Shown one piece after another: positions 17,581 to 42,563 of a stretch of DNA of 64,000 bases. The position numbers and the translations under genes were made by a program. This DNA comes from Candidatus Azambacteria bacterium (lineage in GTDB: Bacteria > Patescibacteriota > Minisyncoccia > UBA10092). The notes under the pieces were generated by a model. It was not told the DNA's origin. It did no database searches and saw only the letters and a list, made by a program, of their open reading frames with translations. The stretch lies in contig DMPO01000006.1 of NCBI GenBank assembly GCA_003455995.1, forward strand, positions 38,397-102,396, read 5' to 3'. The stretch's first letter is position 1; the number at the start of each line of letters is the position of its first letter.

Positions 17581-18518
17581 CCGGCCAAGACGGCTCGTAT
17601 TTAGCTGAACTTTTGTTGAAAAAAAAATATGAAGTTCACGGTTTAATCCGCCGTTCCAGCGTTTTTAACGCACAGAGAATAAATCATCTTGAATTATTCC
17701 TGCACTACGGCGATCTGGCGGATTCAGGTTCCTTGGAGGCCGTTTTATCCAAAGTTAAGCCGGATGAAATTTATAATTTAGCCGCTCAATCTCATGTTCA
17801 AATCAGTTTTGAAATTCCCGAGTATACCGCCGATGTTACGGGACTTGGGGTTTTGAGATTGCTTGAAGCGATGCGGAGGCACTGTCCAAGAGCCAAATTT
17901 TATCAAGCGTCATCGTCGGAAATGTTTGGCGCCGTTAAAGAAACGCCGCAAAATGAAAACACGCCTTTTAACGCCCAAAGCCCGTATGGCATTGCCAAGG
18001 TTTTCGCCCATGAGTCGGTTGGCTGCTACCGCGACGCCTACGGTTTGTTTGCCTGCTGCGGGGTTTCATTTAACCACGAAAGTCCGCGGCGTGGAGAGAA
18101 TTTTGTGACGCGAAAAATCACTAAAAGCATCGCCGGAATAAAAGCTGGGATTCAAGATGAAATTTTTTTGGGGAACTTGGATGCCAAACGCGACTGGGGT
18201 TTCGCGCCCGAATTCGCGGAAGCGATGTGGCTGATGCTCCAGCAGGAAAAACCGGATGATTTTGTTATCGCTACCGGCGAAGTCCATACAGTCAGAGAGT
18301 TTGTTAAAGCCGCTTTTAACTGCGCCGGAATCAAGAATTGGAAAAAATATATTGAAATAGATCCGCGGTTTTATCGTCCGAACGAAGTTAATGTCTTACA
18401 GGGGGACGCCTCAAAAGCCAGAAAAATTTTGGGCTGGAAGCCGCGAGTTACTTTTAAAGAATTGGTCGAAATAATGATGAAGGAAGAATTAAAAAATGAA
18501 AATCTGTTATCTGGTTGA
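17535..18518 (+). CDS. gmd: GDP-mannose 4,6-dehydratase
   Basis: [20 protein letters not shown] and the downstream SDR motifs are diagnostic of GMD. It overlaps the upstream gene by 46 nt across an A-rich tract. Confidence 0.85.
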
Positions 18519-22084: not shown

Positions 22085-23395
22085 ATGCATGAGAATAAAC
22101 AAATTATCATAGACGGCTGGCGCGTTTATGATTTGCCGGTTGAATATAGCGACGCCGATTATGAAGAAGCGCGGGTTGAAATAACCAATCAAGTCCGCAA
22201 TACCCCGGGGCTTATCGCCTTGTTTGAATATGGCTGTATTCCTTTTCCCGGAATATCGGATATGGATTTTTGGGCGGTATTTTCGGATGATGCGGGAAAA
22301 ATGGGGCTTCCTTTACAACCTGCGCTTTCCGAAAAAACCAAATATTTAATGAGCCACCAAATCACGCTTTTTGCGGAAAAACATTATCGAAAAATGCTTT
22401 ACTTTGATCCTTGGACGACTTATGCCTGGCCCAATGGCCAAAGATTATTATATAAATCGGATGGTATTGAAAGGGATTTAAATTTTGAAAATATAAAATT
22501 TACCAAAGAGGAAAGAGATATTTTGAGCTTAGTTCTTGTTGAAGAATACTTGGGGTCGATAAATTCAACAATTTCCTTTTACGCCAAAAAAAAGTTGCCT
22601 GTGAGGCATATTCTGGAAACAATTAAAACCTGCGTTTATATCATTGAAGAAATCAATCTTATTACCGACAGAAAAATCAATTCTACTTTTCCGGAAGAAC
22701 TCAAAGATTTGAGATCCAAATGGTTTAAGATTGACCGGCAAGAAGCCGTAAAAAAACTAATAAAATTATTTTACGACGGATTACTTATCAGTTTTGAAGC
22801 CGCTTTTTCTTTGAGCAATTGGGCCAGTCGGCGTTCCGAATGGCTTCGTATTTCGGACTTGGGGGTGGAAAGAATAAATTTTTTAAACCATTTTTGTTTA
22901 GATAAAAAAGCCAAAAATATTTATCTTAACATTTTTAACGACTGGCGGGTTTTTACCGATTTCGCGCGCACTCCAGCGCAAGCATTGGAATTATCGATTA
23001 ATTCCTGCCGGGAAGTTGAAATAAAATTAGGACGATACTCCAAAGTGATTGATTTTTGCGTCGTTTTTCAACCGCTGGAATTGGCCGCTATTTATTTGGG
23101 TTTTATTTCCGAAAAAGGCTTATTGAGCGATAATTTGAGAAAAAACACTTTCAGCAATTTAGAAGAAGCACCGGTCTTCCGGCCCAAAATATTTCAGGAA
23201 AAAATAAAAATGATAAATGAGATCATTGAAATTTATAATAATAAACGGGTTGCGGATACAAGCGGGAAAGGATGGCATTTCGGAAACGGCAGTTTCCAAA
23301 ATTCTTTTGAACATAAAACGATTAAAAAGAAAATTTTGGTTTTTTGGCTTAAACAAAAATTTTGGCGCGCCATAAACGCGGCGATAAAAATTTAA
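22085..23395 (+). CDS. Hypothetical protein (possible minimal nucleotidyltransferase-fold N-terminus)
   Basis: 436 aa with no confident family assignment. The segment YGCIPFPGISDMDFWAVF loosely resembles a Pol-beta-type G[GS]...D.D motif. Confidence 0.35.
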   Translation: MHENKQIIIDGWRVYDLPVEYSDADYEEARVEITNQVRNTPGLIALFEYGCIPFPGISDMDFWAVFSDDAGKMGLPLQPALSEKTKYLMSHQITLFAEKHYRKMLYFDPWTTYAWPNGQRLLYKSDGIERDLNFENIKFTKEERDILSLVLVEEYLGSINSTISFYAKKKLPVRHILETIKTCVYIIEEINLITDRKINSTFPEELKDLRSKWFKIDRQEAVKKLIKLFYDGLLISFEAAFSLSNWASRRSEWLRISDLGVERINFLNHFCLDKKAKNIYLNIFNDWRVFTDFARTPAQALELSINSCREVEIKLGRYSKVIDFCVVFQPLELAAIYLGFISEKGLLSDNLRKNTFSNLEEAPVFRPKIFQEKIKMINEIIEIYNNKRVADTSGKGWHFGNGSFQNSFEHKTIKKKILVFWLKQKFWRAINAAIKI

Positions 23396-24798: not shown

Positions 24799-26043
24799 AT
24801 GATGAAAATCATCATCTTGTCGGATTATTTTGATAATCGCGGAGGAGCCGTCAGTATCGCTAAAACAATGGCTTACGGCTTCAAACAAATGGGCCATAAT
24901 GTCGGCGTGATTACTACAGTCCAAGACAAGGCGCTCGCGGGCCAAAAAATAATTGATGGAGTTAAAATATGGTCTGTTTATTCCAATTATAATCTTTTTT
25001 GGCGCGCTTATCGCAGTTTATACAATCCCCAGACCGTAAAACATATCGCGAAAATTATTGAAGAAATAAAACCGGATGTGGTTCACGCCAATAATATCCA
25101 TGTCCACCTTTCATACCACGCCCTGAAAATTGCCCAAAAAAGCGGGGCCAGAGTATTTTTGACCGCTCACGATGTCATGCCTTTTCATTATGGTAAATTG
25201 ACAGAATTTATAAACCCGAATAATTTATCCTGTCCCGAAAAATTCAATTACAAAATCAGCGTTTGGCGGCAAATAAAAAGAGCGGGCAAAACCTATAACC
25301 CTTTTCGTAATTTAATCATTAGATATTATCTTGAATATGTCGATAAAATTTTTGCCGTTAGCGGCGCGTTGAAAAACGCGCTTAATGACAATGGAATAAA
25401 AAATGTTGAAGTAATTCATAACGGCATTGATGTTTCGGCATGGGCAGTAAACGAAGCGGCCATAGAAGTTTTCAAAGAGAAGCATAATATTCGAAACAAA
25501 AAGGTTGTTTTGTTTGGCGGACGCCTTGGTTGGCTGAAAGGAGGGCGTGAAATTTGCTTGGCGATGAAAAAGGTGATTGAAACAATACCCAACGCGGTTC
25601 TTTTGCTTGCCGGAAAAATAGACGAAGAAGTTAAAGAAATTCTTGATTTTGCCGACAAACTGGGAATTAACAAAAATATTATTGCCGCCGGCTGGCTTTC
25701 GGGTGGCGAGCTTAAAGCCGCCTATAATGTCGCGGATATCGTGACGGCGCCGTCGATTTGTTTCGATTCTTTTCCGACCGTAAATTTGGAAGCGATGGCT
25801 TGCAAAAAGCCGGTTATCGCCACCTGTTTTGGCGGAAGCCGCGAAGCGGTAATAGACGGCGAAACCGGCTATATCGTAAATCCGTTTAACATAGATAAGT
25901 TAGCAGATAAAATAATATATCTATTAAAAAATTCTGAAGTTGCCAGAAAATTCGGCGAAGCGGGGTATGAGAGGGTGAAAAAAGAATTCAGTTCGGAAAA
26001 AATGATCGGTGATTATTTAAATTGGTACGGAAAAATTTTTTAA
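24799..26043 (+). CDS. GT4 family glycosyltransferase
   Basis: VVLFGGRLGWLKGG...NLEAMACKKPVIATCFGG signature. Confidence 0.7.
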   Translation: MMKIIILSDYFDNRGGAVSIAKTMAYGFKQMGHNVGVITTVQDKALAGQKIIDGVKIWSVYSNYNLFWRAYRSLYNPQTVKHIAKIIEEIKPDVVHANNIHVHLSYHALKIAQKSGARVFLTAHDVMPFHYGKLTEFINPNNLSCPEKFNYKISVWRQIKRAGKTYNPFRNLIIRYYLEYVDKIFAVSGALKNALNDNGIKNVEVIHNGIDVSAWAVNEAAIEVFKEKHNIRNKKVVLFGGRLGWLKGGREICLAMKKVIETIPNAVLLLAGKIDEEVKEILDFADKLGINKNIIAAGWLSGGELKAAYNVADIVTAPSICFDSFPTVNLEAMACKKPVIATCFGGSREAVIDGETGYIVNPFNIDKLADKIIYLLKNSEVARKFGEAGYERVKKEFSSEKMIGDYLNWYGKIF

Positions 26044-27416
26044 TGAAAACTATTTTTATTACCGCTTATCATCCTTTTATCTCCAAAAACATTCTTAATA
26101 CGAATGTGTTTGGCATTTTGAAACAAAGAAAAAATTTAAGAATCATTCTTTTAGTTCCGGTTATTTTGAAAGATTTTTTTGAAAACAATTACCGTTTCGA
26201 CAATGTAGTGATTGAGAGTATCGATCTGGCGCCATTCTCAAAATCCCGCCTCAGCAATTTTTTTTCAAGAGCCGCTTTCTTTTTTACTTACAATCACTGG
26301 ATTAGATATAAAAGGATGGAATATTTAAATGCCCATTGGAGTTTTTATAACCTCGTGAAATTTCGTGTTTTTATGGTATTAACGCGAATTTTATCTGGGC
26401 ATAAAATTTTAAATAAAATTTTCAGATTTTTTGACTGGCGTTATTCGCCCAATAATTTTTATAAAGATTATTTTGAAAAATACAAACCCGATATTGTTTT
26501 TTCAACCGATGTTTATGACGATTTTGACCAGGCGCTGATTAAAGAAGCGAAAATAAGAAAGATCTTTGTTATCGGCATGATCCGCTCCTGGGATAATAAT
26601 ATCAGTAAAGGACTAATGAGATGCTTTCCGGATAAATTAATTGTTAATAATGAGGTAATTAAGAAAGAGGCGATAAAACTTCATAATTATCCAGAAGGAA
26701 ATATTTTCATCGGCGGCCTGCCGCAGTTTGACGATTATCTTAAGGCGCCTTTCAAAAGCCGAGAAGAGTTTTTCGAGTCGGCGGGCGGAGATCCCGAAAA
26801 AAGAACGGTTTTATTTTCACCCGGCAGCCGGGGAATTTCCGCGGATGCCAATATTATTATTTGCGAAGCGTTTAAAGCCGCAAAGGAAAGTGGTGATTTG
26901 CCCAAAGATATTCAATTTTTTATCAGAAACCATCCCACCAGGCCAGATAGGGCGCTGGAAAAATTCAAAAATGATTCCGATTTTATTATCGAAATGCCAG
27001 GAAAAATTAAAAATAGCGGGAAATTTCTCGAATTTTCACTTCAAGACAATCGCCATCTTATAGATACCATATATTATTCCGATGTTGTCGTCTGGATTGT
27101 AACCTCGATAGGACTGGACTCTTTAGTTTTTGATAAGCCGCAAATCGTAGTTGATTTTGACGGCCTTGAAAATAAGTCATACTGGTTAAGCGTCAAGCGG
27201 TTCAATGACGAAGAACACATGCTTTTATTCTTTGAAACAGGAGCCGTAAAAATAGCCGATAATTTGGAAAATTTAATTGTTTATATTAAAGAATATCTTG
27301 AAAATCCCTCCATTGATCGCGAAGGAAGAAAAAAAGCCGCTTTGCAACAGCTTTGGAAGGCGGATGGAAAATCAAGCGAAAGAATCGCAAATTTCATTTT
27401 ATCATTCCTTTTTTAA
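26043..27416 (+). CDS. Putative CDP-glycerol glycerophosphotransferase-like protein (TagB/TagF family), uncertain
   Basis: 458 aa soluble protein. The C-terminal half has a FFIRNHPTRPD segment reminiscent of the Glyphos_transf conserved His-Pro region. Context includes a cytidylyltransferase and an OPA transporter. Start placed at the TAATG overlap at 26043. Confidence 0.35.
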   Translation: MKTIFITAYHPFISKNILNTNVFGILKQRKNLRIILLVPVILKDFFENNYRFDNVVIESIDLAPFSKSRLSNFFSRAAFFFTYNHWIRYKRMEYLNAHWSFYNLVKFRVFMVLTRILSGHKILNKIFRFFDWRYSPNNFYKDYFEKYKPDIVFSTDVYDDFDQALIKEAKIRKIFVIGMIRSWDNNISKGLMRCFPDKLIVNNEVIKKEAIKLHNYPEGNIFIGGLPQFDDYLKAPFKSREEFFESAGGDPEKRTVLFSPGSRGISADANIIICEAFKAAKESGDLPKDIQFFIRNHPTRPDRALEKFKNDSDFIIEMPGKIKNSGKFLEFSLQDNRHLIDTIYYSDVVVWIVTSIGLDSLVFDKPQIVVDFDGLENKSYWLSVKRFNDEEHMLLFFETGAVKIADNLENLIVYIKEYLENPSIDREGRKKAALQQLWKADGKSSERIANFILSFLF

Positions 27417-28131
27417 GCTGGCGGAATTTATTTTCCATTTTCTCCCAGTCGGAAGGAATGTTGATGTCTTCATCGTAAAAATCGCTGACAATATAGGGCT
27501 CTTGCTTCTCGCCGCCGAAATAGCAGGGATTTTTTCCGTACAAAATTTTTGGCTTCAAAACAAAAACCAGATCATTTTTGACATAATATTTTGGCAGGAG
27601 CTGGCGGCGCGCCGGAGCGTATTTTACATTCTGGCCTATGGCGTTTAACAGTTCATAACTGTTGCCCCTTTTTACAGGCTGGACAATCCAATAAGGATGA
27701 TGATGGGCGGCCGATAATTCGGAAAGAGGGATCACCACATCTGGGTCTTTTTTCAAAAACAGTTCTATCGCCTCGTCAACCTGTTTAACGTTTCTTAAAG
27801 AATTGGGAGGCATCAGCAAGACGATGGCGTCGGTTTTATAATTTTCATATTTTTTCAGCCATTCTATGGCGTGCCTTAACACCGGCTCCATTTGCGTCGC
27901 GCTCCCGGCTAATTTTTTGGGGCGCAAAAAGGGCGTTTCGGCGCCGTATTTTTTTGCCACTTTGGCTATTTCGGGGCTATCGGTGGAAACAATGGTCCGG
28001 TTTATAAGAGGGCTTTTCAGAGCCGTCTCAATAGCCCAGGCAATCAACGGTTTACCGCAGAAATTTCTTATATTTTTTCCGGGAACCCCTTTTGAATCGC
28101 CCCGGGCAGGCACAATCGCCACGATTTTCAT
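27394..28131 (-). CDS. Acylneuraminate-type cytidylyltransferase (CMP-nonulosonic acid synthetase, NeuA/PseF/LegF family)
   Basis: MKIVAIVPARGDSKGVPGKNIRNFCGKPLIAWAIETA is the canonical CTP_transf_3 N-terminus. Confidence 0.8.
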   Translation of the reverse strand: MKIVAIVPARGDSKGVPGKNIRNFCGKPLIAWAIETALKSPLINRTIVSTDSPEIAKVAKKYGAETPFLRPKKLAGSATQMEPVLRHAIEWLKKYENYKTDAIVLLMPPNSLRNVKQVDEAIELFLKKDPDVVIPLSELSAAHHHPYWIVQPVKRGNSYELLNAIGQNVKYAPARRQLLPKYYVKNDLVFVLKPKILYGKNPCYFGGEKQEPYIVSDFYDEDINIPSDWEKMENKFRQLKKGMIK

Positions 28132-28158
28132 AATTTATGAAATAACATAAAATTAAAA

Positions 28159-28187
28159 ATCCCGCAACGAACGCGGGATTGTTTTTT
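28159..28187 (-). terminator. Hairpin terminator between B12-rSAM gene and CMP-sugar synthetase gene
   Basis: ATCCCGC-AACGAAC-GCGGGAT stem-loop flanked by A/T runs on both strands. Confidence 0.6.
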
Positions 28188-29847
28188 ACATTTCCAAAAT
28201 TTTATATATGTCGCCAGAATCAATGTATCCTCTGGCCTTGACGAAAATATCATCCGGCATGTCGCTGTAATTCAGCGGCTCGCCGGTCTTGGAATTGCGC
28301 AAAACCTTTGTGGCGTCATCCAGCTCCAAAATATACCGGCGCAGGTTTTCATCGCAAACCGGCTCGCCGACAAAATCAAAAGTAATTCCGAAAACTTCAC
28401 GCAGAATTTTTTGAACCTTGGATTGGTGGCCCATTTCCGTTCCCGGATACCAGGTGGCGGTGAACATTTTCTTGTTTACCGAGTCGGCGGACTTGCCGCG
28501 CGTACCATAAAATATCTCTTGCCACTCGATAAAAGCGACGCTCATTTTTAGGTCCTCAAGGGTCTCGGTTGGGTATCCCATTATCCAGGTGCAATTAGCG
28601 TGAATGCCGGCATTTTCGCAATCTATAACGCCCTCTATCATAGAGCTGGGGAATTCGCAAAATTTTCCATTGGCAATAATACCCTTAATCCCTTTTTTGA
28701 GAATAAATCCGCCTTTATTCATCGCTTTCAGGACTTTCGGCGAGGCGCTTTCGGCGCCGAAGCCGATATAAATGCATCCGGCTTCCGCCATTAAATTAAA
28801 TCCCTTTGATTCATCGAGGCGCGCGTGCGTCCCCCAGCGGATATTTAGCGGCTTAAGAAGGGGGACTAAATCAATGATTCTTTTATGGTCGATGGCGAAA
28901 TTATCGTCCACCATCCCAATGAAATCAACTCCATATTTTTCAATATGCATTCTGAATTCCTTGGCAAGATTTTGCGCTGATCGCGCGCCGTAATTTTTTT
29001 CGCCTTGCGCGCCGCGATAGCAGAAAGCGCAATTATACGGACAGCCCCGCGAAGAAACAAAGTTCGTGCTCCGATTCATCGTGAATGAAGCCGCTGAACT
29101 GTTGTTGGCGGAAGCGCCCCAAATTGGATTGCAGATATAGTATTCCAGAATCTTATTGCCAAAAACATCTTCTTTTAGAAAATCCAAATCGGCGAAAGGA
29201 ATGCAGTCCAAATCCCGCGGTCGGTCGCCTTCGTAAACGAAGCGATGCCGGCCGAATATTTCTCCTTTGCCGACTATCGAACCCAAATAATAGGGTTCCA
29301 ATTTTCCGGAATTAATCGCCCGCAAAAAACCCGTTTTTTTGAGAATTCTCGCGTCGTGGGCGGCTTTGACGATTACATCGTCGCCTTCGGAACGGACTAT
29401 GCCGTCCAGGTCGGGGATGTAATTGAAAAGCCCCGCTCTCAATTCGGTGGCGAGGCCGCCGCCGGAAACAAGAAAAACGATCGGCGCCAATTTGCGAACC
29501 ATTTTAGCGACTTTTTCCTGCCAGCGCAATGTGGTGATCATTCCCGAAAGGCCGACCAGATCCGGCTCGCCATGAACTTCAAAATGTTTTTTTATCAGTT
29601 CAAAAACTTCCTGTTCGGTAAGGTGCCGGCCGTTTATTCGATAGCCGTTCAAATCAACTATCGAAACATTAACCTCATAGTTATCGCGCAAATTAGTTGC
29701 CAGAAGCAGGGGGCCTTGGGGCGTGTTGTTTGGCGCCGCCGCTTCTCTTAAAGGCATATTGATAAAAACAACATTTAAGCCGCGCAGATCGGCCGGTTTG
29801 ATATCTTTGATGATATCCGCCGGGTGAATATAATCGCAACTTTTCAT
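28186..29847 (-). CDS. B12-binding domain radical SAM enzyme (class B rSAM, putative methyltransferase)
   Basis: CPYNCAFCY is the CxxxCxxC radical SAM cluster motif. The N-terminal ~150 aa has the cobalamin-binding Rossmann-like layout. The GGAGGAG SD is visible on the minus strand. Confidence 0.8.
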   Translation of the reverse strand: MKSCDYIHPADIIKDIKPADLRGLNVVFINMPLREAAAPNNTPQGPLLLATNLRDNYEVNVSIVDLNGYRINGRHLTEQEVFELIKKHFEVHGEPDLVGLSGMITTLRWQEKVAKMVRKLAPIVFLVSGGGLATELRAGLFNYIPDLDGIVRSEGDDVIVKAAHDARILKKTGFLRAINSGKLEPYYLGSIVGKGEIFGRHRFVYEGDRPRDLDCIPFADLDFLKEDVFGNKILEYYICNPIWGASANNSSAASFTMNRSTNFVSSRGCPYNCAFCYRGAQGEKNYGARSAQNLAKEFRMHIEKYGVDFIGMVDDNFAIDHKRIIDLVPLLKPLNIRWGTHARLDESKGFNLMAEAGCIYIGFGAESASPKVLKAMNKGGFILKKGIKGIIANGKFCEFPSSMIEGVIDCENAGIHANCTWIMGYPTETLEDLKMSVAFIEWQEIFYGTRGKSADSVNKKMFTATWYPGTEMGHQSKVQKILREVFGITFDFVGEPVCDENLRRYILELDDATKVLRNSKTGEPLNYSDMPDDIFVKARGYIDSGDIYKILEM

Positions 29848-29983
29848 AACTCTCCTCCGTTTTATTGTTAGATGTCAAAGACCGCTTTAATTGACGGAAA
29901 CGGTATCATAAAATTAAATCTTTGACAAGGCGATTATTTTATGGTAATTTTCAGTGTCAAAATTTCCCGAACTTTAACAACAA

Positions 29984-30014
29984 CCACCCTTCGGGTGGCC
30001 ACCCGTAGGGGTGG
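29984..30014 (+). promoter_or_regulatory. Twin stem-loop 5' leader element (CCACCC-UUCG-GGUGG then CCACCC-GUAG-GGGUGG) immediately upstream of the SD
   Basis: Two consecutive near-identical hairpins, one with a UUCG tetraloop, end 6 nt before AGGAGG (30021-30026) and the ATG at 30033. Confidence 0.4.
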
Positions 30015-30032
30015 AAAATTAGGAGGTTAAAA

Positions 30033-30911
30033 ATGAAAAAAATTGGATTCATTGGGTTGGGGACTATGGGTTTGCGGATGGTGCAGAGATTGCTTTCCGC
30101 CGGGTATAAGCTGACGGTATATAACCGGACGGCGGAAAAAGCGAACGCGCTGGTGGATAACGGCGCGCGATTTGCCGTCAATCCGAGGCAACTCGCGGAG
30201 CGTTCCGATGTAATTATTACAATGGTCAGTGATGGTCGGGCTGTTCGCGATGTTGCCGAGGGCGTATGGGGGGCATTTTCAGTAGCACAGCGGGGAACGG
30301 TTTTTATTGACTGCAGTACCATTTCGGTCGGGACAACCAAATATCTCGCTTTGAGAGCGGAAAATTTGGGATGCTATTGGCTGGACGCGCCGGCGCTTGG
30401 AGGCCCAGCGGCGGCTGAAGCCGGAGAATTGTCGTTCGTCGTTGGCGGGCCAAAAAATATTCTAGATGAAAATATAGAGATTTTTAACGCCCTCGGCAGA
30501 GTTACTTGGATGGGGGAGTGCGGCATGGGCCAGGCGGCCAAAATTGTCCATAATATGGCCTGCGGCATATCGTTAGCGGCATTCAGCGAAGCGATTATTC
30601 TGGGCGAAAAACTTGGTCTGGAAAGAAAACAAACGATAGAGACGCTATTAAACGGCGCGGTTGGAAGTCCTTTATTAAAGGTGAAGGCGCCTAAATTTGA
30701 AGAAAATGATTTTGAACCCGCTTTTGCGTTAACTATGATGTTAAAGGATTTAACCTTGGCGGAAGACGCCGCCAAAGAATCGGAACTGTTTCTCCCGGCG
30801 CTTTCGGCGGTCAAAAAGCTCTACAATTTAGCGAGAATACGCGGATTTGGCGACGAGGACTCGTCGGCCGTTATTAAAGCGTTTCAATTTTTGACGGAGG
30901 TGAAGCGATGA
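30033..30911 (+). CDS. NAD(P)-dependent beta-hydroxyacid dehydrogenase (HIBADH/tartronate-semialdehyde reductase/6PGDH-like family)
   Basis: MKKIGFIGLGTMGLRMVQRLLSAGYKLTVYNRT is the classic dinucleotide-binding N-terminus of this family. Confidence 0.75.
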   Translation: MKKIGFIGLGTMGLRMVQRLLSAGYKLTVYNRTAEKANALVDNGARFAVNPRQLAERSDVIITMVSDGRAVRDVAEGVWGAFSVAQRGTVFIDCSTISVGTTKYLALRAENLGCYWLDAPALGGPAAAEAGELSFVVGGPKNILDENIEIFNALGRVTWMGECGMGQAAKIVHNMACGISLAAFSEAIILGEKLGLERKQTIETLLNGAVGSPLLKVKAPKFEENDFEPAFALTMMLKDLTLAEDAAKESELFLPALSAVKKLYNLARIRGFGDEDSSAVIKAFQFLTEVKR

Positions 30912-32836
30912 ATGGCGCGGTGATAAAGATTATCCCCCAGTCGGAATTTGTCCGCGTTTGGCAAACAGGCGCAAATTTTTACGCTACGCTCTCTTTGATT
31001 GCCGACATGTGCCGCCTGAACGCGCTTTCGGCGGTTAAACGCGCCGGTTCCGGCCATCTTGGTTCCAGTTTCAGCGCGATGGATATTGTAACATATCTTT
31101 ATTGGTGGGAGATGAATACGATTCGGAAGGGCTTTGATAATCCGAATCGCGATATCTATTTTTCGTCAAAGGGACACGATGTTCCGGGGTTATACGCCGC
31201 GCTTTTTTCGCTTGGTATAATTTCGGAGGAACTTTTTCTGAAACTGCGCCGTCTCGGCGGCCTTCACGGCCATCCGGATATAAACAATTTAGGTATTGAG
31301 GCCAATTCTGGGTCGTTGGGAATGGGAATTTCCAAGGGCCGCGGAATGGCTTGGGCTAAAGAATATTTGGGATTGTCCGGACGAGTTTTCGTGATGACCG
31401 GCGATGGTGAGTTCCAGGAAGGGCAGAATTACGAGGCGCTTCAGGGAGCGGCGCAGTTAATGCAGGATCGCTTAATTGTGGTTATGGACCACAACAAGGT
31501 CCAAAGCGATAAATTGGTCAAAGAAATAGTTGACTTGGGCGATCTTGAAGCGAAGTTCTCGTCATTCGGTTGGTATGTTGAGCGTTGCAACGGCCATGAT
31601 TTTAAGGCGCTTGAAAAAACTTTCGCCAGAATCGATAAAATTACACAAAAACCAAAAATAATAATTGCCAACACAATCAAGGGCAAGGGCGTTTCTTTTA
31701 TGGAACACCCATATGCTCTTAAAGAAAATGGCATATATAAATGGCACGCCGGAGCGCCGGATGACGATTCTTACAAGGTAGCGTTTAAAGAATTGTTTGA
31801 AAAAATTAACACGCGGCTTGCAAAACTATTTTTGGATTCAATCACTACCAAAGAGGTGTGTGATGAAAAAGAGCCGGTCAATCAGAAAAAAGTATCCGGC
31901 GAATATATTGCCGATTCTTACGGCAAGGCGCTTGTGGCATTGGCCGCCGAGCGGGACGATTTCGTGGTATTGGACGCCGATTTGGCGGCGGATTGCCGAT
32001 TGCGCGATTTTGAAAAACAATTTCCGGAACGGTTTATCGAATGCGGCATCGCCGAGCAGGATATGGTGTCCATGGCCGGCGGCTTGGCGCGGCAGGGGAT
32101 TCTCCCGATTGTAAATTCCTTTGGAGCGTTTCTGTCATCGCGCGCCAATGAGCAAATTTACACCAACGCTTGCGAACGGTCCAAGATTATCTATGTTTGC
32201 CATTATGCCGGCCTCATTCCGGCCGGACCGGGAAAATCGCATCAGTGTCTTCGGGATGTCTCATTGTTCGGCGCGTTGCCGGATATGACTATCATTCAGC
32301 CATGCAATGCATGGGAGACGCGGCAGGCGCTTAATTATTGCGTCAATTTTACGGCCAACAGTTCTATGTTGCGTCTCAATATTGGTCCTTCTCCGCGCGT
32401 AATTGAGTTGCTGGCAGAATATGCTTTCACAAAAGGCATAGGCGCTGAACTGACAAAAGGGGAAGACGCGATTCTTTTCGCGTATGGGCCGGTGATGCTC
32501 AATGAAGCGCTTGCCGCTTCGGAGATATTGGCGAAAAAAGGATTTGGATTAAAAGTTGTCAATATGCCGTGGCTGAATTCAGTGGATGTTGAATGGTTAA
32601 GAGCGGTTTTAGGTCCGACTAAAAAAATATTCGTACTGGAAGACCACAATATAATCGGCGGTTTAGGAGATTTTCTGTTAAATCAATTTGTCACCAATAA
32701 ACTTTTGGAAGGGAAGACGTTCCGAAAATTCGGGATAACCGGATTGCCGGCCTGCGGCCGACCTGATGAAGTATTGAAATTTCACGGCCTTGATGGCGCA
32801 ACGTTTGCGAAAAAATCCAACAATAAGGAGGAATGA
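30908..32836 (+). CDS. Transketolase-family ThDP enzyme, fused N- and C-terminal halves
   Basis: GSGHLGSSFSAMDIV, GHPD...NSGSLGMGISKGRGMAWA and TGDGEFQEGQNYEAL in the N-terminal half. FIECGIAEQDMVSMAGGLA in the C-terminal half. An insertion of about 50 aa lies between the halves. Confidence 0.75.
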   Translation: MNGAVIKIIPQSEFVRVWQTGANFYATLSLIADMCRLNALSAVKRAGSGHLGSSFSAMDIVTYLYWWEMNTIRKGFDNPNRDIYFSSKGHDVPGLYAALFSLGIISEELFLKLRRLGGLHGHPDINNLGIEANSGSLGMGISKGRGMAWAKEYLGLSGRVFVMTGDGEFQEGQNYEALQGAAQLMQDRLIVVMDHNKVQSDKLVKEIVDLGDLEAKFSSFGWYVERCNGHDFKALEKTFARIDKITQKPKIIIANTIKGKGVSFMEHPYALKENGIYKWHAGAPDDDSYKVAFKELFEKINTRLAKLFLDSITTKEVCDEKEPVNQKKVSGEYIADSYGKALVALAAERDDFVVLDADLAADCRLRDFEKQFPERFIECGIAEQDMVSMAGGLARQGILPIVNSFGAFLSSRANEQIYTNACERSKIIYVCHYAGLIPAGPGKSHQCLRDVSLFGALPDMTIIQPCNAWETRQALNYCVNFTANSSMLRLNIGPSPRVIELLAEYAFTKGIGAELTKGEDAILFAYGPVMLNEALAASEILAKKGFGLKVVNMPWLNSVDVEWLRAVLGPTKKIFVLEDHNIIGGLGDFLLNQFVTNKLLEGKTFRKFGITGLPACGRPDEVLKFHGLDGATFAKKSNNKEE

Positions 32837-32840
32837 AGAT

Positions 32841-33347
32841 ATGGATTTTGAGTTGCTTGAAAAATTGCGAAAAATAAAACTTTTGGTGCTTGATTGCGAC
32901 GGCGTTCTGACTGACAGCTATGTCTATGTGAACAATGATGGCAATGAATTTTGTCGGTTTAGCCATCGCGATGGCAAGGGGATTCAACTGATTCGGGAAG
33001 CGGGGATTGAAGTGGCGATAATAACAAGCCAGAAAAGCCCCTATGTTAAAAAAAGATGCGATAAGATGGGCGTTGAATTTCACCAAGCCATTACGAACAA
33101 ACTAAGAAATCTTGGTGATATGCTTGAAGACAAAAAGATGCGTTTTCAAGAAGTTTGTTTTGTCGGCGACGATGTTAGCGACATCGCGGTAATGAATAAT
33201 GTCGGTTTGCCCATAGCGGTAGCCGATGCCGAAGAAGAAGTAAAAAAAATCACCGCATATATTACTAAAAGAAAAGGCGGCGAGCACGCCGTTCGCGAAG
33301 TTTGCAATCTGATTTTGGAAGCAAGAAGGTGTCGTAATGAATTCTGA
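32841..33347 (+). CDS. HAD-superfamily phosphatase, KdsC family (KDO-8-P / nonulosonate-9-P phosphatase type)
   Basis: LVLDCDGVLTD (DxDGV motif I) and FVGDDVSDIAVM (motif IV), about 170 aa. AAGGAGG SD before the ATG at 32841. Confidence 0.75.
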   Translation: MDFELLEKLRKIKLLVLDCDGVLTDSYVYVNNDGNEFCRFSHRDGKGIQLIREAGIEVAIITSQKSPYVKKRCDKMGVEFHQAITNKLRNLGDMLEDKKMRFQEVCFVGDDVSDIAVMNNVGLPIAVADAEEEVKKITAYITKRKGGEHAVREVCNLILEARRCRNEF

Positions 33348-34155
33348 AGCGTATAAAATGTTCTCGGTAGAGAACAAAGTGATTGTCATTACCGGCGGCG
33401 CCGGATTTCTTGGGATGCAATTTGCCAAAGCGTTAGGTTTGGCCGGCGCCCAGATTGTGATTTGGGACAATTGTGATTTCAGTTTTCTGCAATCGCAAGC
33501 CGTCTTGTTGAGGCAAAAAAATATCAAGTGCATTGCCCAAGATGTTGATTTAACGGATATGGTAGTAGTTAACAAAATGGCAAATTCGGTTATTGAAAAA
33601 TTTGACCGCATTGATGTTCTTATCAACAACGCCGCGCTCAATCCGGCTGTTGACAGCGCCGAAGCCGAGCAAATGTTCTCGCCTTACGAAAAATATCCCG
33701 TTGATCTGTTCAAGAAGGAGGTAGAAGTGGATTTGATTGGAACGCATCTTTGCATTCAGGCGGCGGCGCCGCAAATGATAAAGCGAAGATCGGGGGTGAT
33801 TTTAAATATCTCCTCCGAATACGCCAATATTGCCGCCGACAATCGAATCTACGGCGAAGGTCAGTTCAAGTCCATCGCCTATATTGCCGCCAAAAGTGGA
33901 GTTCTCGGACTCACTCGAGGCTGGGCGTCTTATCTGGGAGAGTATGGCGTTCGCGTTAACGCTTTTACTCCCGGTGGCATGCCCAAGCCGGAAGTGTCGG
34001 AAGAATTCCGACGAAAATATTCTTCACTAAATATGCTGGGGCGGACGGCAAATCCCGGAGAATATGACGGCGCGATTTTGTTCTTGTGTTCCGACGCTTC
34101 CTCATTTATGACCGGCAATCAGCTTGTCATGGATGGCGGCAAAAGCGCATGGTGA
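33337..34155 (+). CDS. Short-chain dehydrogenase/reductase (classical SDR)
   Basis: VIVITGGAGFLG Rossmann motif, NNAA, YIAAK catalytic YxxxK. The exact start is uncertain between 33337 and 33358. Confidence 0.7.
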   Translation: MNSEAYKMFSVENKVIVITGGAGFLGMQFAKALGLAGAQIVIWDNCDFSFLQSQAVLLRQKNIKCIAQDVDLTDMVVVNKMANSVIEKFDRIDVLINNAALNPAVDSAEAEQMFSPYEKYPVDLFKKEVEVDLIGTHLCIQAAAPQMIKRRSGVILNISSEYANIAADNRIYGEGQFKSIAYIAAKSGVLGLTRGWASYLGEYGVRVNAFTPGGMPKPEVSEEFRRKYSSLNMLGRTANPGEYDGAILFLCSDASSFMTGNQLVMDGGKSAW

Positions 34156-34169
34156 GAGAAGGAGGGCAT

Positions 34170-35042
34170 ATGGTAAAAATAGAAAACATATTTGTCGGAG
34201 ACGACCACCCATGTTTTATAGTCGCCGAAATCGGAATCAATCATAATGGCAGTTTGGAAATTGCCAAAAAGATGATTGATTTGGCGGCCGAATCCGGCTG
34301 CGATGCCGTGAAATTTCAAAAACGGACGCCGGATTTATGCGTTCCCGACGAACAGAAAAATATGATGTACGAAACCCCTTGGGGGTTGATACCGTATATC
34401 GAATACCGGCATAAGATTGAATTCGGGCAGAAGGGATATGAACAAATTGATGATTATTGCCGGAGGAAAGGAATCATGTGGTTCGCTTCCTGTTGGGACG
34501 AAGATAGCGTCGATTTTATCGAAAAGTTCGATCCTCCTTGCTACAAAATCGGCTCGGCGTCTTTAACCGACAGAAATCTTTTGCTCCATACTCGGTTTAA
34601 AAACAAGCCCGTTATTCTTTCAACGGGGATGAGCACGATGGAGCAGGTTTATGGCGCAGTTGATACTTTGGGGAGAGAGGACTTAATCCTCTTGCACTGT
34701 GTCGGGACTTATCCCGTGCCCGATCATGAAAATAATTTGAGGGTTATCAATACCCTGCGGGAAACATTTCCGGAAGTGCCGATTGGATACAGCGGGCATT
34801 GCCGCGGCACCACTTTGGGCGTTTGCGCCGTCGCCTTGGGCGCTTGCGTAGTAGAGAGGCACATCACGCTTGACCGCGAAATGTGGGGGTCCAATCAGGC
34901 GGCAAGCTTGGGGCCGGAGGGACTTAAGCTGATGGTCGGCAACATCCGCCGGCTGGAACTCGCTTTAGGCGACGGAGTCAAGAGAGTTTTAGAATCGGAG
35001 GTTCCTCTGATTATGAAGCTCCGCCGAAAAGTTGATTTTTGA
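34170..35042 (+). CDS. N-acylneuraminate/nonulosonate synthase family protein (NeuB-like TIM barrel), lacking C-terminal SAF domain
   Basis: MVKIENIFVGDDHPCFIVAEIGINHNGSLEIAKKMIDLAAESGCDAVKFQKR is the hallmark NeuB N-terminus. GAAGGAGGG SD before the ATG at 34170. 291 aa, shorter than typical ~340-aa NeuB. Confidence 0.75.
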   Translation: MVKIENIFVGDDHPCFIVAEIGINHNGSLEIAKKMIDLAAESGCDAVKFQKRTPDLCVPDEQKNMMYETPWGLIPYIEYRHKIEFGQKGYEQIDDYCRRKGIMWFASCWDEDSVDFIEKFDPPCYKIGSASLTDRNLLLHTRFKNKPVILSTGMSTMEQVYGAVDTLGREDLILLHCVGTYPVPDHENNLRVINTLRETFPEVPIGYSGHCRGTTLGVCAVALGACVVERHITLDREMWGSNQAASLGPEGLKLMVGNIRRLELALGDGVKRVLESEVPLIMKLRRKVDF

Positions 35043-35091: not shown

Positions 35092-35115
35092 GCCCCGTTA
35101 ACTAACGGGGCTTTT
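35092..35115 (+). terminator. Rho-independent terminator (shared convergent-gene region)
   Basis: GCCCCGTTA-loop-TAACGGGGC followed by TTTT. Overlaps the stop codon of the minus-strand flippase gene. Confidence 0.65.
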
Positions 35116-36360
35116 GAATTTCCAAAGCGCGATGCTTATAAAAAATATGATGATATAATAAATCACCTGCGCCAGAACTAATCCCAAAATGCCGCCCCAA
35201 ATGCCGAGCGCCACATACAAAATTATTTTGACAATACTGGAAGAGATACTGCTTGACGCGATGGCTCCGAACATTTTTTGGGAGTTGATGGCCGTTCCGA
35301 TATAGCCCACCGGAGCGATGAAAATAAAAGATAATGCCAAAATTTGAGAATAGAAAATTGAGTCAATATATTTGGGCAATAAATATTTAAATACTAAAGG
35401 CGATACTAAAATATATCCGACGGCGAGAAGCGCTCCCAAACCGATTGCCTGAAATATTCTTTTGTAAAAAACTTCGTCTATCTCCTCGGTATTTTTAACG
35501 GCAAGCTTGGGCAGTCCGAGATTTATGATGCTTTTTATAAACGGCCCGACTTTATCCGGAATTGCTCGCGCCAGAGAATACACCGCCAATGGCGCCGGAC
35601 CCCAAAAATGAACAAGAACGATGCTATCGGTTTGCGCCACAATCGGGCCGATGAATCCCAAAAGCGTCAGCCGGCGGCCGTATTTGACGACATCTCCGGC
35701 CGGCGCCAACGGCGGATTAAAAATCTGCAGTGTTTTCCAATAAAAAAATATATTGGCAATCAGAGTAGTTAAAGCGTAGGCGATAATAAGCGGCAATATT
35801 TCCTTGCTTAACAGCGTTGCCAGCAACATTCCGGCGGCGTATATGGCGGTTGAAAAAATACTGAATAAATTATTGATTTTAAATTGTTTTTTGCCGTCAA
35901 GATACGCGCCGTAGGTATTGAACGCGAAAGTCAGGGGTGTAAATATGCCAAAAATAAGGAAAGAAATCGCAAGAATTTGATTATCGTTTAGAAAATAATA
36001 ACCTCCCAATCCCCACATAGCGATTGCCATCATAACATTCCATTTCAACTGGTATCTGACGGAAGTTCTTAACGCCCCTTCATTGCCGGTGGCCGTGGCT
36101 TGGCTGACCGCCGCGTTCATTCCGGTCATGGTAAAAACATTGAATATGCCCGCCAAAGACAAAATATAGCGGTAAAATCCGTAGGTTTCTTTCGGAAGCA
36201 AATTCGCGAAAGCGATTATCAAAAGGAAGGAAATCGAGCTATTCATTCCTTGTCCGAAAGCCGTCCAAAAACCGCCGCCGGCGAAATATTTTAAATCCAA
36301 GCCAAAAAATTCGGTGCCATAGTTTATGAATTTATGGTAAATTTCTTTTTTACTTTCCAT
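35098..36360 (-). CDS. Polysaccharide/O-antigen flippase (Wzx-like, MOP superfamily)
   Basis: 420 aa with about 12 TM helices. N-terminal pattern typical of Polysacc_synt proteins. Upstream of the initiating sugar transferase. Confidence 0.6.
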   Translation of the reverse strand: MESKKEIYHKFINYGTEFFGLDLKYFAGGGFWTAFGQGMNSSISFLLIIAFANLLPKETYGFYRYILSLAGIFNVFTMTGMNAAVSQATATGNEGALRTSVRYQLKWNVMMAIAMWGLGGYYFLNDNQILAISFLIFGIFTPLTFAFNTYGAYLDGKKQFKINNLFSIFSTAIYAAGMLLATLLSKEILPLIIAYALTTLIANIFFYWKTLQIFNPPLAPAGDVVKYGRRLTLLGFIGPIVAQTDSIVLVHFWGPAPLAVYSLARAIPDKVGPFIKSIINLGLPKLAVKNTEEIDEVFYKRIFQAIGLGALLAVGYILVSPLVFKYLLPKYIDSIFYSQILALSFIFIAPVGYIGTAINSQKMFGAIASSSISSSIVKIILYVALGIWGGILGLVLAQVIYYIIIFFISIALWKFKSPVS

Positions 36361-37690
36361 TGCCGGATAGTAAAATCTTGATGGTTTTTAGAATAATCGA
36401 AAAATCCAGAAATATTGAGCGATTTTTGAGATAATACAGATCATATTGAAGTTTCTCCATTGTTTCTTTGAAGGTTGGGCCGGCCTTAGGATTATGTAAT
36501 TGCGCCCAGCCGGCAATTCCCGGTTTTATCAAATGGCGCATTTCGTAGAAGGGGATTTCTTCCGATAGTTTTTCAACAAGTTCCGGCTTTTCGGGCCGAG
36601 GTCCGATAAATGACATCTGTCCCAATAAAATATTCCAGACCTGCGGCAGTTCATCTATGTGTGTTTTTCGCAAAAATCTGCCGACAAAAGTCATTTCTTC
36701 TTTCAAGGGCTTGCGCATTTCGTATTTGCCGCTCTTATCGCTGGATAGCGATCTGAATTTAGTTAGTGTAAATATCTTTCCGTTTTTTCCTACGCGGTGG
36801 CGTCTGAAAAAAATCGGTCCCGGATTGGAGATTTCTATGGCCAAAACAGCAAAAGGGAATATCAACAGCGCGATGGTTCCTAAAATAATTGAGCCGATAA
36901 TATCTATGATTCTCTTTACGATTTCGTAAAGATTTTTTTTGGATTGCCCGATATTTTCCAAAAACCACGCCTCCTGAATGATTGAAATTGGCACTCGGTC
37001 TGTTGTAAGTTCGTAAAACTTATCAAGGTCGTTAATAGCGGCGCCTTGCTTAAAATATCTGAAAAGCAAATAGGACAGTTTTTTTGAATGATCGAATTGT
37101 TCGGCCGAAATAATCAGTGAGAATCTTTTATCTCGCCAAAGGTTTTCCAGTTCGGAGGAATTATCAGGCGCCAAAATTCCGGCCACTCGATAGCCCAATT
37201 GCGGATTGTTGTTCAAAAATTCTTTCAACTCCAATATTTCCGGACTGGCGCCGATAAATACGACGCCGATCTTTAGCGCTTTTGTGGCCCACTTGTTAAA
37301 ATATTGCCTCCAATAATAAAGAATGGCCACGGTCAAAACTAGATCGATAAACAGATTTATTTTGGGCGTGATTATGAAATATGGTATAAAGTAGAAGAAG
37401 GAAATGGCGATTGCCGCGTTAACGCCGAATGTGATGATGAGATTTTTATAGAAGAATTCTTCATTCTTGAGTTTCAACAGATCATAGAGGCCGGCAGTCC
37501 AAAAAATAATTAGCCAAAAAGCGAATATTATGCTAAAAGGAACAAGATGAAGAGGGACAGAATTCAATAGCGTTGAAAAATCGCGTTCGATAACCGCATA
37601 TCGTATCAGAAGAGTCAACCCCAAGGCGACATAGAATATCACAAAGTCGCTAACAACAAGCAAAAATATCTTTAACCGTTTTCGCCACAT
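36350..37690 (-). CDS. Polyprenyl-phosphate sugar-1-phosphate transferase (WbaP/WcaJ-type initiating phosphoglycosyltransferase, Bac_transf domain)
   Basis: C-terminal PGPIFFRRHRVGKNGKIF...DELPQVWNILLGQMSFIGPRPE is diagnostic. N-terminal TM helices plus a central domain as in large PGTs. Confidence 0.8.
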   Translation of the reverse strand: MWRKRLKIFLLVVSDFVIFYVALGLTLLIRYAVIERDFSTLLNSVPLHLVPFSIIFAFWLIIFWTAGLYDLLKLKNEEFFYKNLIITFGVNAAIAISFFYFIPYFIITPKINLFIDLVLTVAILYYWRQYFNKWATKALKIGVVFIGASPEILELKEFLNNNPQLGYRVAGILAPDNSSELENLWRDKRFSLIISAEQFDHSKKLSYLLFRYFKQGAAINDLDKFYELTTDRVPISIIQEAWFLENIGQSKKNLYEIVKRIIDIIGSIILGTIALLIFPFAVLAIEISNPGPIFFRRHRVGKNGKIFTLTKFRSLSSDKSGKYEMRKPLKEEMTFVGRFLRKTHIDELPQVWNILLGQMSFIGPRPEKPELVEKLSEEIPFYEMRHLIKPGIAGWAQLHNPKAGPTFKETMEKLQYDLYYLKNRSIFLDFSIILKTIKILLSGNGK

Positions 37691-37718: not shown

Positions 37719-39920
<2,202 letters not shown>

Positions 39921-42532: not shown

Positions 42533-42563
42533 TTTTGTTTACTATAAACATATTGCGATTACC

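Follow-up and report, generated by a model that had tools for sequence, protein, structure and literature searches.

Ulosonic acids, such as sialic acids, Kdo, Kdn, pseudaminic acid and legionaminic acid, cap the surfaces of many microbes, where they govern how hosts, phages and partner cells recognise them. To our knowledge, all known routes to these sugars fix the carbon skeleton at the step of condensation with phosphoenolpyruvate (PEP). In the Kdo8N pathway of Shewanella, the oxidase KdnB (of the Fe-alcohol-dehydrogenase type) and the aminotransferase KdnA modify the tail by oxidation followed by transamination. In the yersiniose pathway, YerE and YerF carry out thiamine diphosphate (ThDP)-dependent C2 chemistry on a keto-sugar nucleotide, where YerE, a member of the acetolactate-synthase family, adds a branch. 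Kdn itself is made in Bacteroides thetaiotaomicron and Prymnesium parvum via Kdn-9-phosphate (Kdn-9-P) with the participation of a C0-type phosphatase of the haloacid dehalogenase (HAD) superfamily (PMC6200933), and Streptomyces walls contain Kdn teichulosonic acid (PMC11481543). Here we describe a seven-gene cassette found in a 64,000-nucleotide stretch of a Candidatus Azambacteria genome (GCA_003455995.1, contig DMPO01000006.1, positions 38,397 to 102,396; hereafter the window), in which genes for a NeuB-family synthase, a HAD phosphatase and a CMP-ulosonate cytidylyltransferase are accompanied by those for a transketolase (TK)-family enzyme, two dehydrogenases and a radical SAM enzyme. The reading that we favour, giving it slightly less than an even chance when it is taken in full together with its chemistry, is that this acquired cassette makes a CMP-activated 3-deoxy-2-ulosonic acid with an edited tail.

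The synthase gene (34170-35042, plus strand) encodes a 290-aa PEP-condensing enzyme of the NeuB family that consists of the TIM barrel only. It matches the PF03102 profile over its whole length (positions 1-241 of 241, 258 bits), has no match to PF08666, i.e., lacks the C-terminal SAF/antifreeze-like domain, and ends at profile position 278 of 329. Its scores are below the NCBIfam equivalog cut-offs both for NeuB_NnaB (256.5 vs. 399.65) and for PseI (211.4 vs. 340.25). Alignment to 1xuu/2wqp showed that residues E25, K53, Q55, K129, S132, H215, E234 and H236 of the Neisseria meningitidis NeuB, which we take to be the metal and PEP ligands, are all kept in the synthase as E20, K48, Q50, K126, S129, H210, E229 and H231, while E134 is replaced by Ser131. 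The synthase, like the radical SAM protein, is 100% identical to a protein of Parcubacteria group bacterium GW2011_GWC1_43_61, a member of the candidate phyla radiation (CPR/Patescibacteria), and its relatives at 55-67% identity come from Chloroflexi, Ignavibacteria, Chlorobi, Bacteroidota, Planctomycetes, Deltaproteobacteria, Streptomyces and CPR.

The phosphatase (32841-33347, plus strand, 168 aa) is a capless (C0) HAD enzyme of the KdsC/YrbI type, well above the cut-off of TIGR01670 (154.1 vs. 106.95). It bears the motifs DCDGVLTD and GDDVSD, in line with DxDGxxTD and GDDxxD, and its 168 residues leave no room for a cap; its scores are below the exact-function cut-offs for KdsC (161.2 vs. 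208) and for KDN-9-P phosphatase (116.9 vs. 180). The cytidylyltransferase of the CTP_transf_3 family (27394-28131, minus strand, 245 aa) matches PF02348 with 85 bits and TIGR03584 (PseF) with 136.9 bits, under the cut-off of 205.7.

An earlier note, made by a model from the letters of the window alone, had taken this trio for the phosphorylated-intermediate route, and this is the most reasonable reading, as the synthase, the C0 HAD and the CMP-synthetase occur together both here and in most related loci. The profiles place the synthase in the NeuB family, not in an unrelated PEP-utilising one, and the phosphatase in the C0-type YrbI/KdsC subfamily, just as the note had supposed; all seven open reading frames (ORFs) and the domains that it had recognised were matched by Pfam/NCBIfam profiles, the B12-binding domain with a score below the cut-off. 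It had also pointed to the absence of the usual sugar-supplying enzymes, and tblastn of the 64-kb window with DegT, NeuC-type Epimerase_2 and class-III aminotransferase queries revealed no homologue.

To see how the core recurs, we used a comparison set of about 165 related loci. Part of it comprises 80 genome loci around a short NeuB, where neighbouring ORFs (simple ORF calls) were clustered by single-linkage BLAST and the cluster representatives were annotated. In this 80-locus set, the short NeuB, HAD, short-chain dehydrogenase/reductase (SDR) and CMP-transferase genes co-occur across many phyla. The typical order in Ignavibacteria and Bacteroidota is a GT-B-like unknown, CMP-transferase, an optional split transketolase, class-III aminotransferase, SDR, HAD, NeuB and a fatty-acid-hydroxylase-family protein. 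The Chloroflexi type comprises a GFO oxidoreductase, SDR, a CMP-transferase::HAD fusion, NeuB, a KpsC/KpsS-like transferase and sulfation genes, and the Streptomyces type has the CMP-transferase::HAD fusion and NeuB without an SDR.

Several variants of the core were observed in passing. Anaerolineae loci among L004-L066 (e.g., L012 and L066) combine the CMP-transferase::HAD fusion and a short NeuB with a KpsC/KpsS-like Capsule_synth protein, ATP sulfurylase/APS kinase and several sulfotransferases, which suggests that they may make sulfated ulosonic-acid polymers. Some of the loci (e.g., L005, L027 and L047) bear two NeuB copies together with SIS_2 and xylose-isomerase-like genes. In Bacteroidota/Ignavibacteria loci L028, L051, L069, L070 and L077, there is a split transketolase-like pair with Phe replacing both donor-hydroxyl histidines (H37 and H258 of the human enzyme), and the same cluster type is also found without any TK (e.g., Ignavibacterium album, L001) and with a fused TK of the window type (L110, L118 and L132).

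The TK-family enzyme of the cassette (30908-32836, plus strand, 642 aa) carries PF00456, PF02779 and PF02780 in one chain. Its score for NF004559 is 396.7, below the NCBIfam cut-off of 488. The family to which it belongs is 60-78% identical across Parcubacteria, Azambacteria, Anaerolineae, Marinimicrobia and Deltaproteobacteria. In the Marinimicrobia and Anaerolineae loci L084 and L085, the order is NeuB (with the SAF domain)-HAD-SDR-aldehyde dehydrogenase (ALDH)-CMP-transferase-TK, and a second Parcubacteria locus, L086, is syntenic with the window, including the genes for the radical SAM enzyme and for the HIBADH-type dehydrogenase that precedes TK; the HIBADH-TK pair as in the window is found in L086 and L088.

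A metagenome scan with motifs specific for this TK family yielded at least 569 relatives. We analysed 80 scan loci, one of which was the window itself, and three earlier loci, i.e., 82 loci besides the window, where contig ends limit the neighbourhood statistics. Among the 25 loci that extend 6.5 kb or more upstream of TK, NeuB was found in 19, CMP-transferase in 19 and SDR in 17. Where both TK and NeuB were present (31 loci), SDR accompanied them in 29 cases and CMP-transferase in 26. Exactly one aldehyde-processing partner was found in 27 of these 31 loci: ALDH (23), a class-III aminotransferase (4) or, besides the window, HIBADH (2). In most loci, the cytidylyltransferase homologue lies directly upstream of TK, and in two Chitinophagales-type loci, L082 (4019-5797) and L060, CTP_transf_3 is fused to the transketolase N-domain, in this case the N-half of a split TK with the Phe replacements. 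The fusion thus ties TK to the late part of the pathway. Taken together, these data give good support to the integration of TK, SDR and HIBADH into the ulosonic-acid pathway.

The simplest explanation to be weighed against such integration is that TK and the dehydrogenases are central-metabolism genes whose place next to a Kdn-type pathway is a matter of chance, and their families are indeed best known from central metabolism. However, the same window bears a canonical housekeeping split transketolase (52026-52874 and 52887-53882, plus strand) beside the glyceraldehyde-3-phosphate dehydrogenase (GAPDH) gene (50325-51383), with a host-like composition (GC content at third codon positions, GC3, of 0.17-0.19). 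The TK of the cassette is only about 30% identical to this enzyme and stays under the NCBIfam transketolase cut-off, NeuB is present in 76% of the informative orthologous loci, and the stop codon of HIBADH overlaps the start of TK by 4 bp, so that chance neighbourhood is hardly credible. In the earlier note, placement of the orthologous TK genes in a pentose-phosphate operon was seen as the outcome that would speak against a common pathway; instead, NeuB neighbours them in 19 of 25 informative loci, and the ordinary split TK stands apart, together with GAPDH, at 50325-53882. An ordinary pentose-phosphate function was rejected for the TK of the cassette in view of this second, canonical enzyme and of the differing active site and context. 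The name DXP synthase, which some databases give to TK homologues, was rejected as well, since the score for the DXS model is 175 vs. a cut-off of 466 and the TK-type histidines are present.

The active site was studied by aligning 62 fused members of the family with human TKT, the closest solved structure (29% identity; human residue numbering is used). The TK of the cassette keeps the ThDP/metal motif (GDG...N; D155, N185), the cofactor-activating E366 and the catalytic histidines H37, H77, H110 and H258. Around them, the substrate-binding residues are changed throughout the family: R318 is replaced by A, V, T or I (K in one member; A in the window), S345 by D, R474 by I or S (N in one member; I in the window), D424 by P in all 62 members, and E432 by R in all but two, while the position of H416 in the TK of the cassette is taken by Y preceded by H. 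In the canonical enzyme, R318, S345, R474 and H416 hold the substrate phosphate, and D424 binds a substrate hydroxyl. All five are among the human TK residues around the xylulose 5-phosphate (X5P)-ThDP adduct (PMC8016368). In the housekeeping split TK of the window, R318, S345 and R474 are all present, while Gln and Tyr stand at the positions of H416 and D424.

Because the catalytic residues are kept and the canonical phosphate ligands are lost, the enzyme appears to be a catalytically competent transketolase-type enzyme whose substrate is non-canonical and probably non-phosphorylated. Moreover, the same active-site signature is found in loci with and without the HAD phosphatase, which suggests that the TK substrate comes after dephosphorylation, where both routes would converge. 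We also considered decarboxylation of the ulosonic acid as a 2-oxo acid, and rejected it for the fused subfamily, given that CMP activation needs an intact keto-acid head and that the histidines for the donor C1-hydroxyl are kept. For the divergent split "TK" of Bacteroidota, with Phe at both histidine positions, decarboxylation may still apply.

The partners of TK give a second line of evidence. The enzyme encoded by the first gene of the plus-strand unit (30033-30911, 292 aa) is an NAD(P) oxidoreductase of the HIBADH/tartronate-semialdehyde-reductase (TSR) type (PF03446, 150.9 bits; PF14833, 91.5 bits), with TSR (211 bits) and HIBADH (198 bits) as the best NCBIfam matches, all of them under the equivalog cut-offs. 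The classical SDR (33337-34155, plus strand, 272 aa; PF13561, 131 bits; PF00106, 116 bits) scores best in NCBIfam with the gluconate 5-dehydrogenase subfamily (148 bits, sub-cut-off), FabG-like models scoring similarly; SDRs of the module also match KduD-type enzymes, and the sequence matches in PDB are generic FabG-like proteins that carry no information on specificity. For the module ALDH, the best match is alpha-ketoglutaric-semialdehyde dehydrogenase (433 bits, sub-cut-off), and for the module class-III aminotransferase it is a glutamate-1-semialdehyde aminomutase-like enzyme or GntE, also sub-cut-off. Alpha-ketoglutaric semialdehyde is a 2-keto-3-deoxy acid with a terminal aldehyde, and gluconate 5-dehydrogenase and KduD act on the penultimate hydroxyl of a sugar acid, which they oxidise so that a terminal ketol results. 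Used as leads only, the ALDH, aminotransferase and HIBADH families thus point to an aldehyde on a 2-keto-3-deoxy acid.

The three partner classes could also be explained in another way: TK and its partner might turn glycolaldehyde into glycolate, ethanolamine or glycol for attachment to the acid or the polymer, since the partners would convert glycolaldehyde to the acid, amine or alcohol, and transketolase-like enzymes are known as C2 donors to natural-product pathways. Against this, the module has no conserved neighbour that is a ligase, acyltransferase or carrier protein, the constant SDR is left unexplained, and the ALDH resembles most closely the dehydrogenases of long keto-acid semialdehydes rather than glycolaldehyde dehydrogenase; we consider such a C2 substituent very improbable.

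The SDR belongs to the core of the wider module. Its homologues (35-43% identity) adjoin the short NeuB in 54 of 78 loci, as judged by ORF clustering, and it stays with NeuB, HAD and CMP-transferase in loci devoid of TK, where its company comprises GFO reductases, aminotransferases, SIS or xylose-isomerase-like proteins, or a ThDP enzyme of the acetolactate-synthase type. This fits a keto intermediate that is diversified by differing enzymes.

These observations bear on the order of steps suggested in the earlier note, where TK, HIBADH and SDR would first make an unusual aldose phosphate through redox steps and ketol transfer, NeuB would condense it with PEP, and the phosphatase, radical SAM enzyme and CMP-transferase would come afterwards. 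Such an order would agree with the leading position of the HIBADH and TK genes in the operon, with the lack of a NeuC-, PseB/C- or DegT-type supplier in the window, and with the KdsC-type phosphatase, which implies a phosphorylated intermediate; in addition, new invariant Arg residues of TK might bind phosphate elsewhere. Yet three canonical phosphate ligands are lost, S345 being turned into Asp, and the signature is the same in the loci lacking the phosphatase. Besides, TK yields ketoses, whereas NeuB requires an aldose, and no isomerase is encoded in the cassette; ALDH, the most frequent partner, would destroy an aldose acceptor; the SDR is kept with NeuB, HAD and CMP-transferase where TK is absent; and the cytidylyltransferase-TK fusion belongs to the late pathway. 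We therefore regard the construction of a phosphosugar acceptor upstream of NeuB as unlikely and favour editing after condensation and after dephosphorylation, because the phosphate ligands are lost, the signature does not depend on the phosphatase, the partners process aldehydes, and the SDR is part of the core even without TK.

The sequence of events that we propose would then be as follows. NeuB would condense PEP with an aldose phosphate, for which mannose 6-phosphate (Man-6-P) suggests itself by analogy with the Kdn route, and the KdsC-type phosphatase would take off the terminal phosphate. The SDR would oxidise the penultimate hydroxyl of the tail, thereby creating a terminal -CHOH-CO-CH2OH ketol, i.e., the donor motif of transketolases. 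TK would cleave the two terminal carbons as ThDP-bound glycolaldehyde and hand them over to an acceptor, leaving an aldehyde-ended ulosonic acid two carbons shorter, which the HIBADH-type enzyme would reduce to a primary alcohol. The radical SAM enzyme may modify the product further by C-methylation or diol dehydration, the cytidylyltransferase would activate it, and a TagF-like transferase encoded next to the cassette may install it. Sister cassettes would process this aldehyde differently: oxidation in the ALDH variant would give an ulosaric acid, and in the class-III aminotransferase variant the aldehyde would be transaminated. In general terms, a phosphate-independent TK subfamily would edit the ulosonic-acid backbone after its synthesis by removal or addition of C2, with the ketol prepared by SDR and with interchangeable end-group enzymes leading to an alcohol, acid or amine; this we put forward tentatively, as somewhat less than an even bet, and the trimming chemistry as such deserves the same reserve.

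The opposite direction, chain extension, has also to be weighed. Here, the SDR would oxidise the terminal CH2OH to an aldehyde, to which TK would add a C2 ketol (e.g., from hydroxypyruvate), and HIBADH would reduce the ketone or supply the donor, yielding a C10-C11 acid. The lost phosphate ligands are compatible with non-phosphorylated donors and acceptors of this kind, enzymes of the HIBADH/TSR type and aminotransferases can, from what is known of these families, turn glycerate or serine into hydroxypyruvate or tartronate semialdehyde, and oxidation of the terminus followed by transamination has its parallel in Kdo8N. However, in the dominant variant TK is paired with ALDH (33 loci), which would have no substrate after the extension and would compete with TK for the aldehyde, and classical SDRs mostly act on secondary alcohols. 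Extended-backbone CMP-ulosonic acids have been reported from Magnetospirillum with the genes unassigned, but the C10 species differ by one carbon, not two (bioRxiv 10.64898/2026.04.20.719630). All this makes chain extension decidedly unlikely.

Several points weigh against the trimming pathway. Its substrate, the order of its steps and its product are all inferred from sequence, context and family knowledge, and the best-match names of SDR, ALDH, aminotransferase and HIBADH are all below the curated cut-offs. TK needs a C2 acceptor, and none is evident. Two new invariant arginines of TK (R366 and R449, in the numbering of the window) could offer another binding site for phosphate, which would allow a phosphosugar as substrate, and the radical SAM enzyme could itself make the carbonyl by diol dehydration, in line with the match of its fold to AprD4, thus leaving TK another job. 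Transketolase is optional in the Bacteroidota and Ignavibacteria loci, and no NeuB was found near some members of the TK family (L112, L116, L117, L119-L121 and L124). Finally, obtaining a C7 acid by trimming a C9 acid looks roundabout as compared with direct condensation of a tetrose phosphate.

The radical SAM enzyme (28186-29847, minus strand, 553 aa; PF04055, 61.9 bits) has an N-terminal B12-binding-like Rossmann domain that scores 29.9 bits with PF02310, slightly under the gathering threshold (GA) of 32.1, and its CxxxCxxC motif is formed by C269, C273 and C276. The AF2 model (pLDDT 87.5) gave full-length two-domain Foldseek matches to TsrM, OxsB, AprD4, TokK and CysS, with E-values of 1e-13 to 1e-15 for the first four and 13-17% identity to solved members; AprD4 showed the highest target-normalised TM-score, 0.70. 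We take AprD4 to be a sugar diol dehydratase in which the B12-type Rossmann domain is present without cobalamin. The predicted fold fits C-methylation, which the note had suggested, and diol dehydration equally. The family numbers 837 homologues at E <= 1e-20, which come almost exclusively from CPR and DPANN. In loci of Yanofskybacteria and Nanoarchaeota that lack TK, its members adjoin the genes for NeuB, SDR, HAD and CMP-transferase; the enzyme is thus tied to the core and not to TK. A phosphonate pathway, with a Fom3/PhpK-like radical SAM enzyme and a cytidylyltransferase, was considered too and rejected, as there is no PEP mutase or phosphonopyruvate decarboxylase and the match to PhpK is weak (70 bits). 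In one Sungiibacteriota locus (L168, 11152-12555), a reverse transcriptase (RVT_1) and bAvd, which we take to be the hallmarks of a diversity-generating retroelement, are encoded directly beside the radical SAM homologue.

The seven genes are organised in two divergent units, the radical SAM enzyme and CMP-transferase on the minus strand vs. HIBADH-TK-HAD-SDR-NeuB on the plus strand, split by a region of 185 bp. The five plus-strand genes are tightly packed, with overlaps of 4 and 11 bp and gaps of 4 and 14 bp, and the 4-bp overlap of HIBADH and TK indicates translational coupling. The GC content is 0.469 in the cassette vs. 0.383 in the remaining window, and GC3 of the cassette genes is 0.42-0.56 vs. 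the above value for the housekeeping transketolase. A GGAGG ribosome-binding site precedes five of the seven genes (radical SAM enzyme, HIBADH, TK, HAD and NeuB) and none of the flanking genes; SDR is preceded by AGAAGG only, and CMP-transferase has no such site. The note's description of a GC-richer block with strong AGGAGG Shine-Dalgarno sequences therefore holds for the composition and for five genes, not for SDR and CMP-transferase. Because GC, GC3 and the GGAGG sites differ from the surroundings, the data fit horizontal acquisition of the cassette, though the composition is not unique to it: a second stretch at 43.4-51 kb is as GC-rich (0.478).

The intergenic region (29848..30032) is a candidate divergent promoter/leader, with a GC-rich hairpin pair at 29983-30014 just 5' of the HIBADH ribosome-binding site. 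The two adjoining hairpins are CCACCCTTCGGGTGG and CCACCCGTAGGGGTGG, and the CCACCCnnnnGGGTGG motif has two matches vs. 0.03 expected. The fold of the leader RNA has an energy of -27.9 kcal/mol with a modest z-score of -2.2. A similar motif with one mismatch lies at 62882-62897. An Rfam scan of the window gave no match, the hairpins included, and a tRNA scan of the window found none, so that no RNA landmark or tRNA-linked boundary of the island was seen.

The flanks of the cassette encode a Wzx-type flippase (35098-36360, minus strand; PF01943), a polyprenyl-phosphate glycosyl-phosphotransferase (36350-37690, minus strand; PF02397; TIGR03025 306 bits, above the cut-off) and a Wzy_C/TPR polymerase or ligase (37719-39920, plus strand; PF04932), an arrangement that is syntenic in L086, as well as many glycosyltransferases, deoxysugar enzymes and methyltransferases. 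The cassette is therefore part of a Wzx/Wzy-type surface-polysaccharide locus and feeds a surface polysaccharide. On the other side of the cassette, a TagF-like protein of the Glyphos_transf family (26022..27416, plus strand, 464 aa; PF04464, 45.5 bits) is a candidate for the transferase that uses the CMP-sugar, its role being suggested by family and position; of the 82 TK-anchored loci, 12 have a homologue directly 3' of TK or inside the module, and homologues are found in L167 and L169 as well. The TagF-like and cytidylyltransferase genes are convergent, and their 3'-ends overlap by 23 bp (27394-27416).

Farther away in the window, the second GC-rich block encodes another B12-binding radical SAM protein (44804-46333, minus strand, 509 aa; B12-binding, 45.7 bits), which adjoins GT2, NTP_transferase and NUDIX genes (with 42495-44786 on the plus strand); its 507-aa homologue is found beside the TagF-like gene in L086 and beside a CMP-transferase-SDR-split TK group in L141. 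The polysaccharide locus also comprises genes for an NDP-hexose C-methyltransferase (Methyltransf_14/13; 4884-6113) and a GDP-mannose 4,6-dehydratase (438 bits; 17535-18518); the latter implies that the organism handles mannose nucleotides, which is compatible with the supply of Man-6-P. Two large ORFs of this locus, 22085-23395 (436 aa) and 14525-16213 (562 aa), both on the plus strand, had no match in the Pfam search, and the former had none in NCBIfam either.

If true, the change of chain length by a ThDP-dependent enzyme after condensation would be new sugar enzymology and a modular route to sialic-acid-like sugars with a backbone other than C9, to which the radical SAM enzyme adds a layer of modification in CPR/DPANN. 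Hundreds of loci, which represent eight or more phyla, share the conserved module, and a post-condensation ThDP step would account for such conservation. A literature search, with most subscription journals outside its reach, revealed no transketolase in any ulosonic-acid pathway and no description of the module, in agreement with the earlier note, which knew of no characterised pathway with this combination; within the same reach, no report of nonulosonic acids in CPR was found. For CPR, which live attached to host cells, the product would be an acquired and chemically unusual surface sugar. The TK subfamily may also serve as a biocatalyst for non-phosphorylated acidic substrates.

The ALDH variant, in turn, would open the way to Dha-type 3-deoxy-heptulosaric acids. 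Dha, i.e., 3-deoxy-lyxo-heptulosaric acid, occurs in the lipopolysaccharide of Acinetobacter (PMC4019464) and in plant rhamnogalacturonan II (PMC12168206, PMC4019464), and a 2025 review lists the genes for such heptulosaric acids as unknown (PMC12168206). CMP-ulosonic acids with non-C9 backbones have been detected in Magnetospirillum by mass spectrometry, again with the genes unassigned (bioRxiv 10.64898/2026.04.20.719630). Backbone editing, if true, would make the origin of both Dha and these abnormal-backbone sugars testable.

Compared with canonical transketolases (EC 2.2.1.1; human TKT and the split TK of Carboxydothermus), the TK of the cassette has the same three-domain fold, ThDP/metal motif, cofactor Glu and four catalytic His, but it lacks R318, S345, R474 and D424, has Arg instead of E432, is only 29% identical, and is encoded in the context of CMP-ulosonate biosynthesis rather than of the pentose-phosphate pathway. 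The SDRs of the module, as classical SDRs, have gluconate 5-dehydrogenase and KduD among their best-scoring named families; their scores are sub-cut-off and FabG-like scores are similar, so that this likeness is a lead and not an assignment. With AprD4, which we take to be a sugar 1,2-diol dehydratase, and with GenK and Fom3, presumably methylases of the cobalamin-type radical SAM class acting on sugar or CMP-linked substrates, the radical SAM enzyme of the window shares, in its predicted structure, the two-domain Rossmann and radical SAM fold, and its gene adjoins that of a cytidylyltransferase; unlike them, it belongs to a family all but limited to CPR/DPANN, and its identity to any solved member is only 13-17%.

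At the level of pathways, Kdo8N resembles the proposed scheme in that an already formed ulosonic acid is edited at the tail via a carbonyl, and the aminotransferase variants of the module look analogous to it; it differs in using KdnB where the cassette has a classical SDR, and it involves neither a ThDP enzyme nor a change in chain length. The yersiniose pathway likewise combines a ThDP enzyme and a reductase acting on a keto intermediate of an activated sugar, and one related locus, L002, has an acetolactate-synthase-type ThDP enzyme and a GFO reductase next to NeuB, HAD and SDR. The ThDP enzyme of the cassette, in contrast to YerE, is of the transketolase family, and its pathway leads to an ulosonic acid. 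The nearest relative of the core is the Kdn pathway of B. thetaiotaomicron (the synthase BT1714, the phosphatase BT1713 and CMP-Kdn synthetase), with which it shares, by gene families, the NeuB synthase, the C0 KdsC-type HAD and CTP_transf_3, though the phosphatase of the window is under the equivalog cut-off for KDN-9-P phosphatase (117 vs. 180). Streptomyces, with Kdn in its walls, bears short NeuB homologues 56-58% identical to that of the window beside a CMP-transferase::HAD fusion. The Kdn route does without the SDR, transketolase, HIBADH and radical SAM enzyme that the cassette has, and no SDR is present in the Streptomyces loci. By analogy, the core of the cassette would work like the Kdn/Neu5Ac-9-P route at the level of kind.

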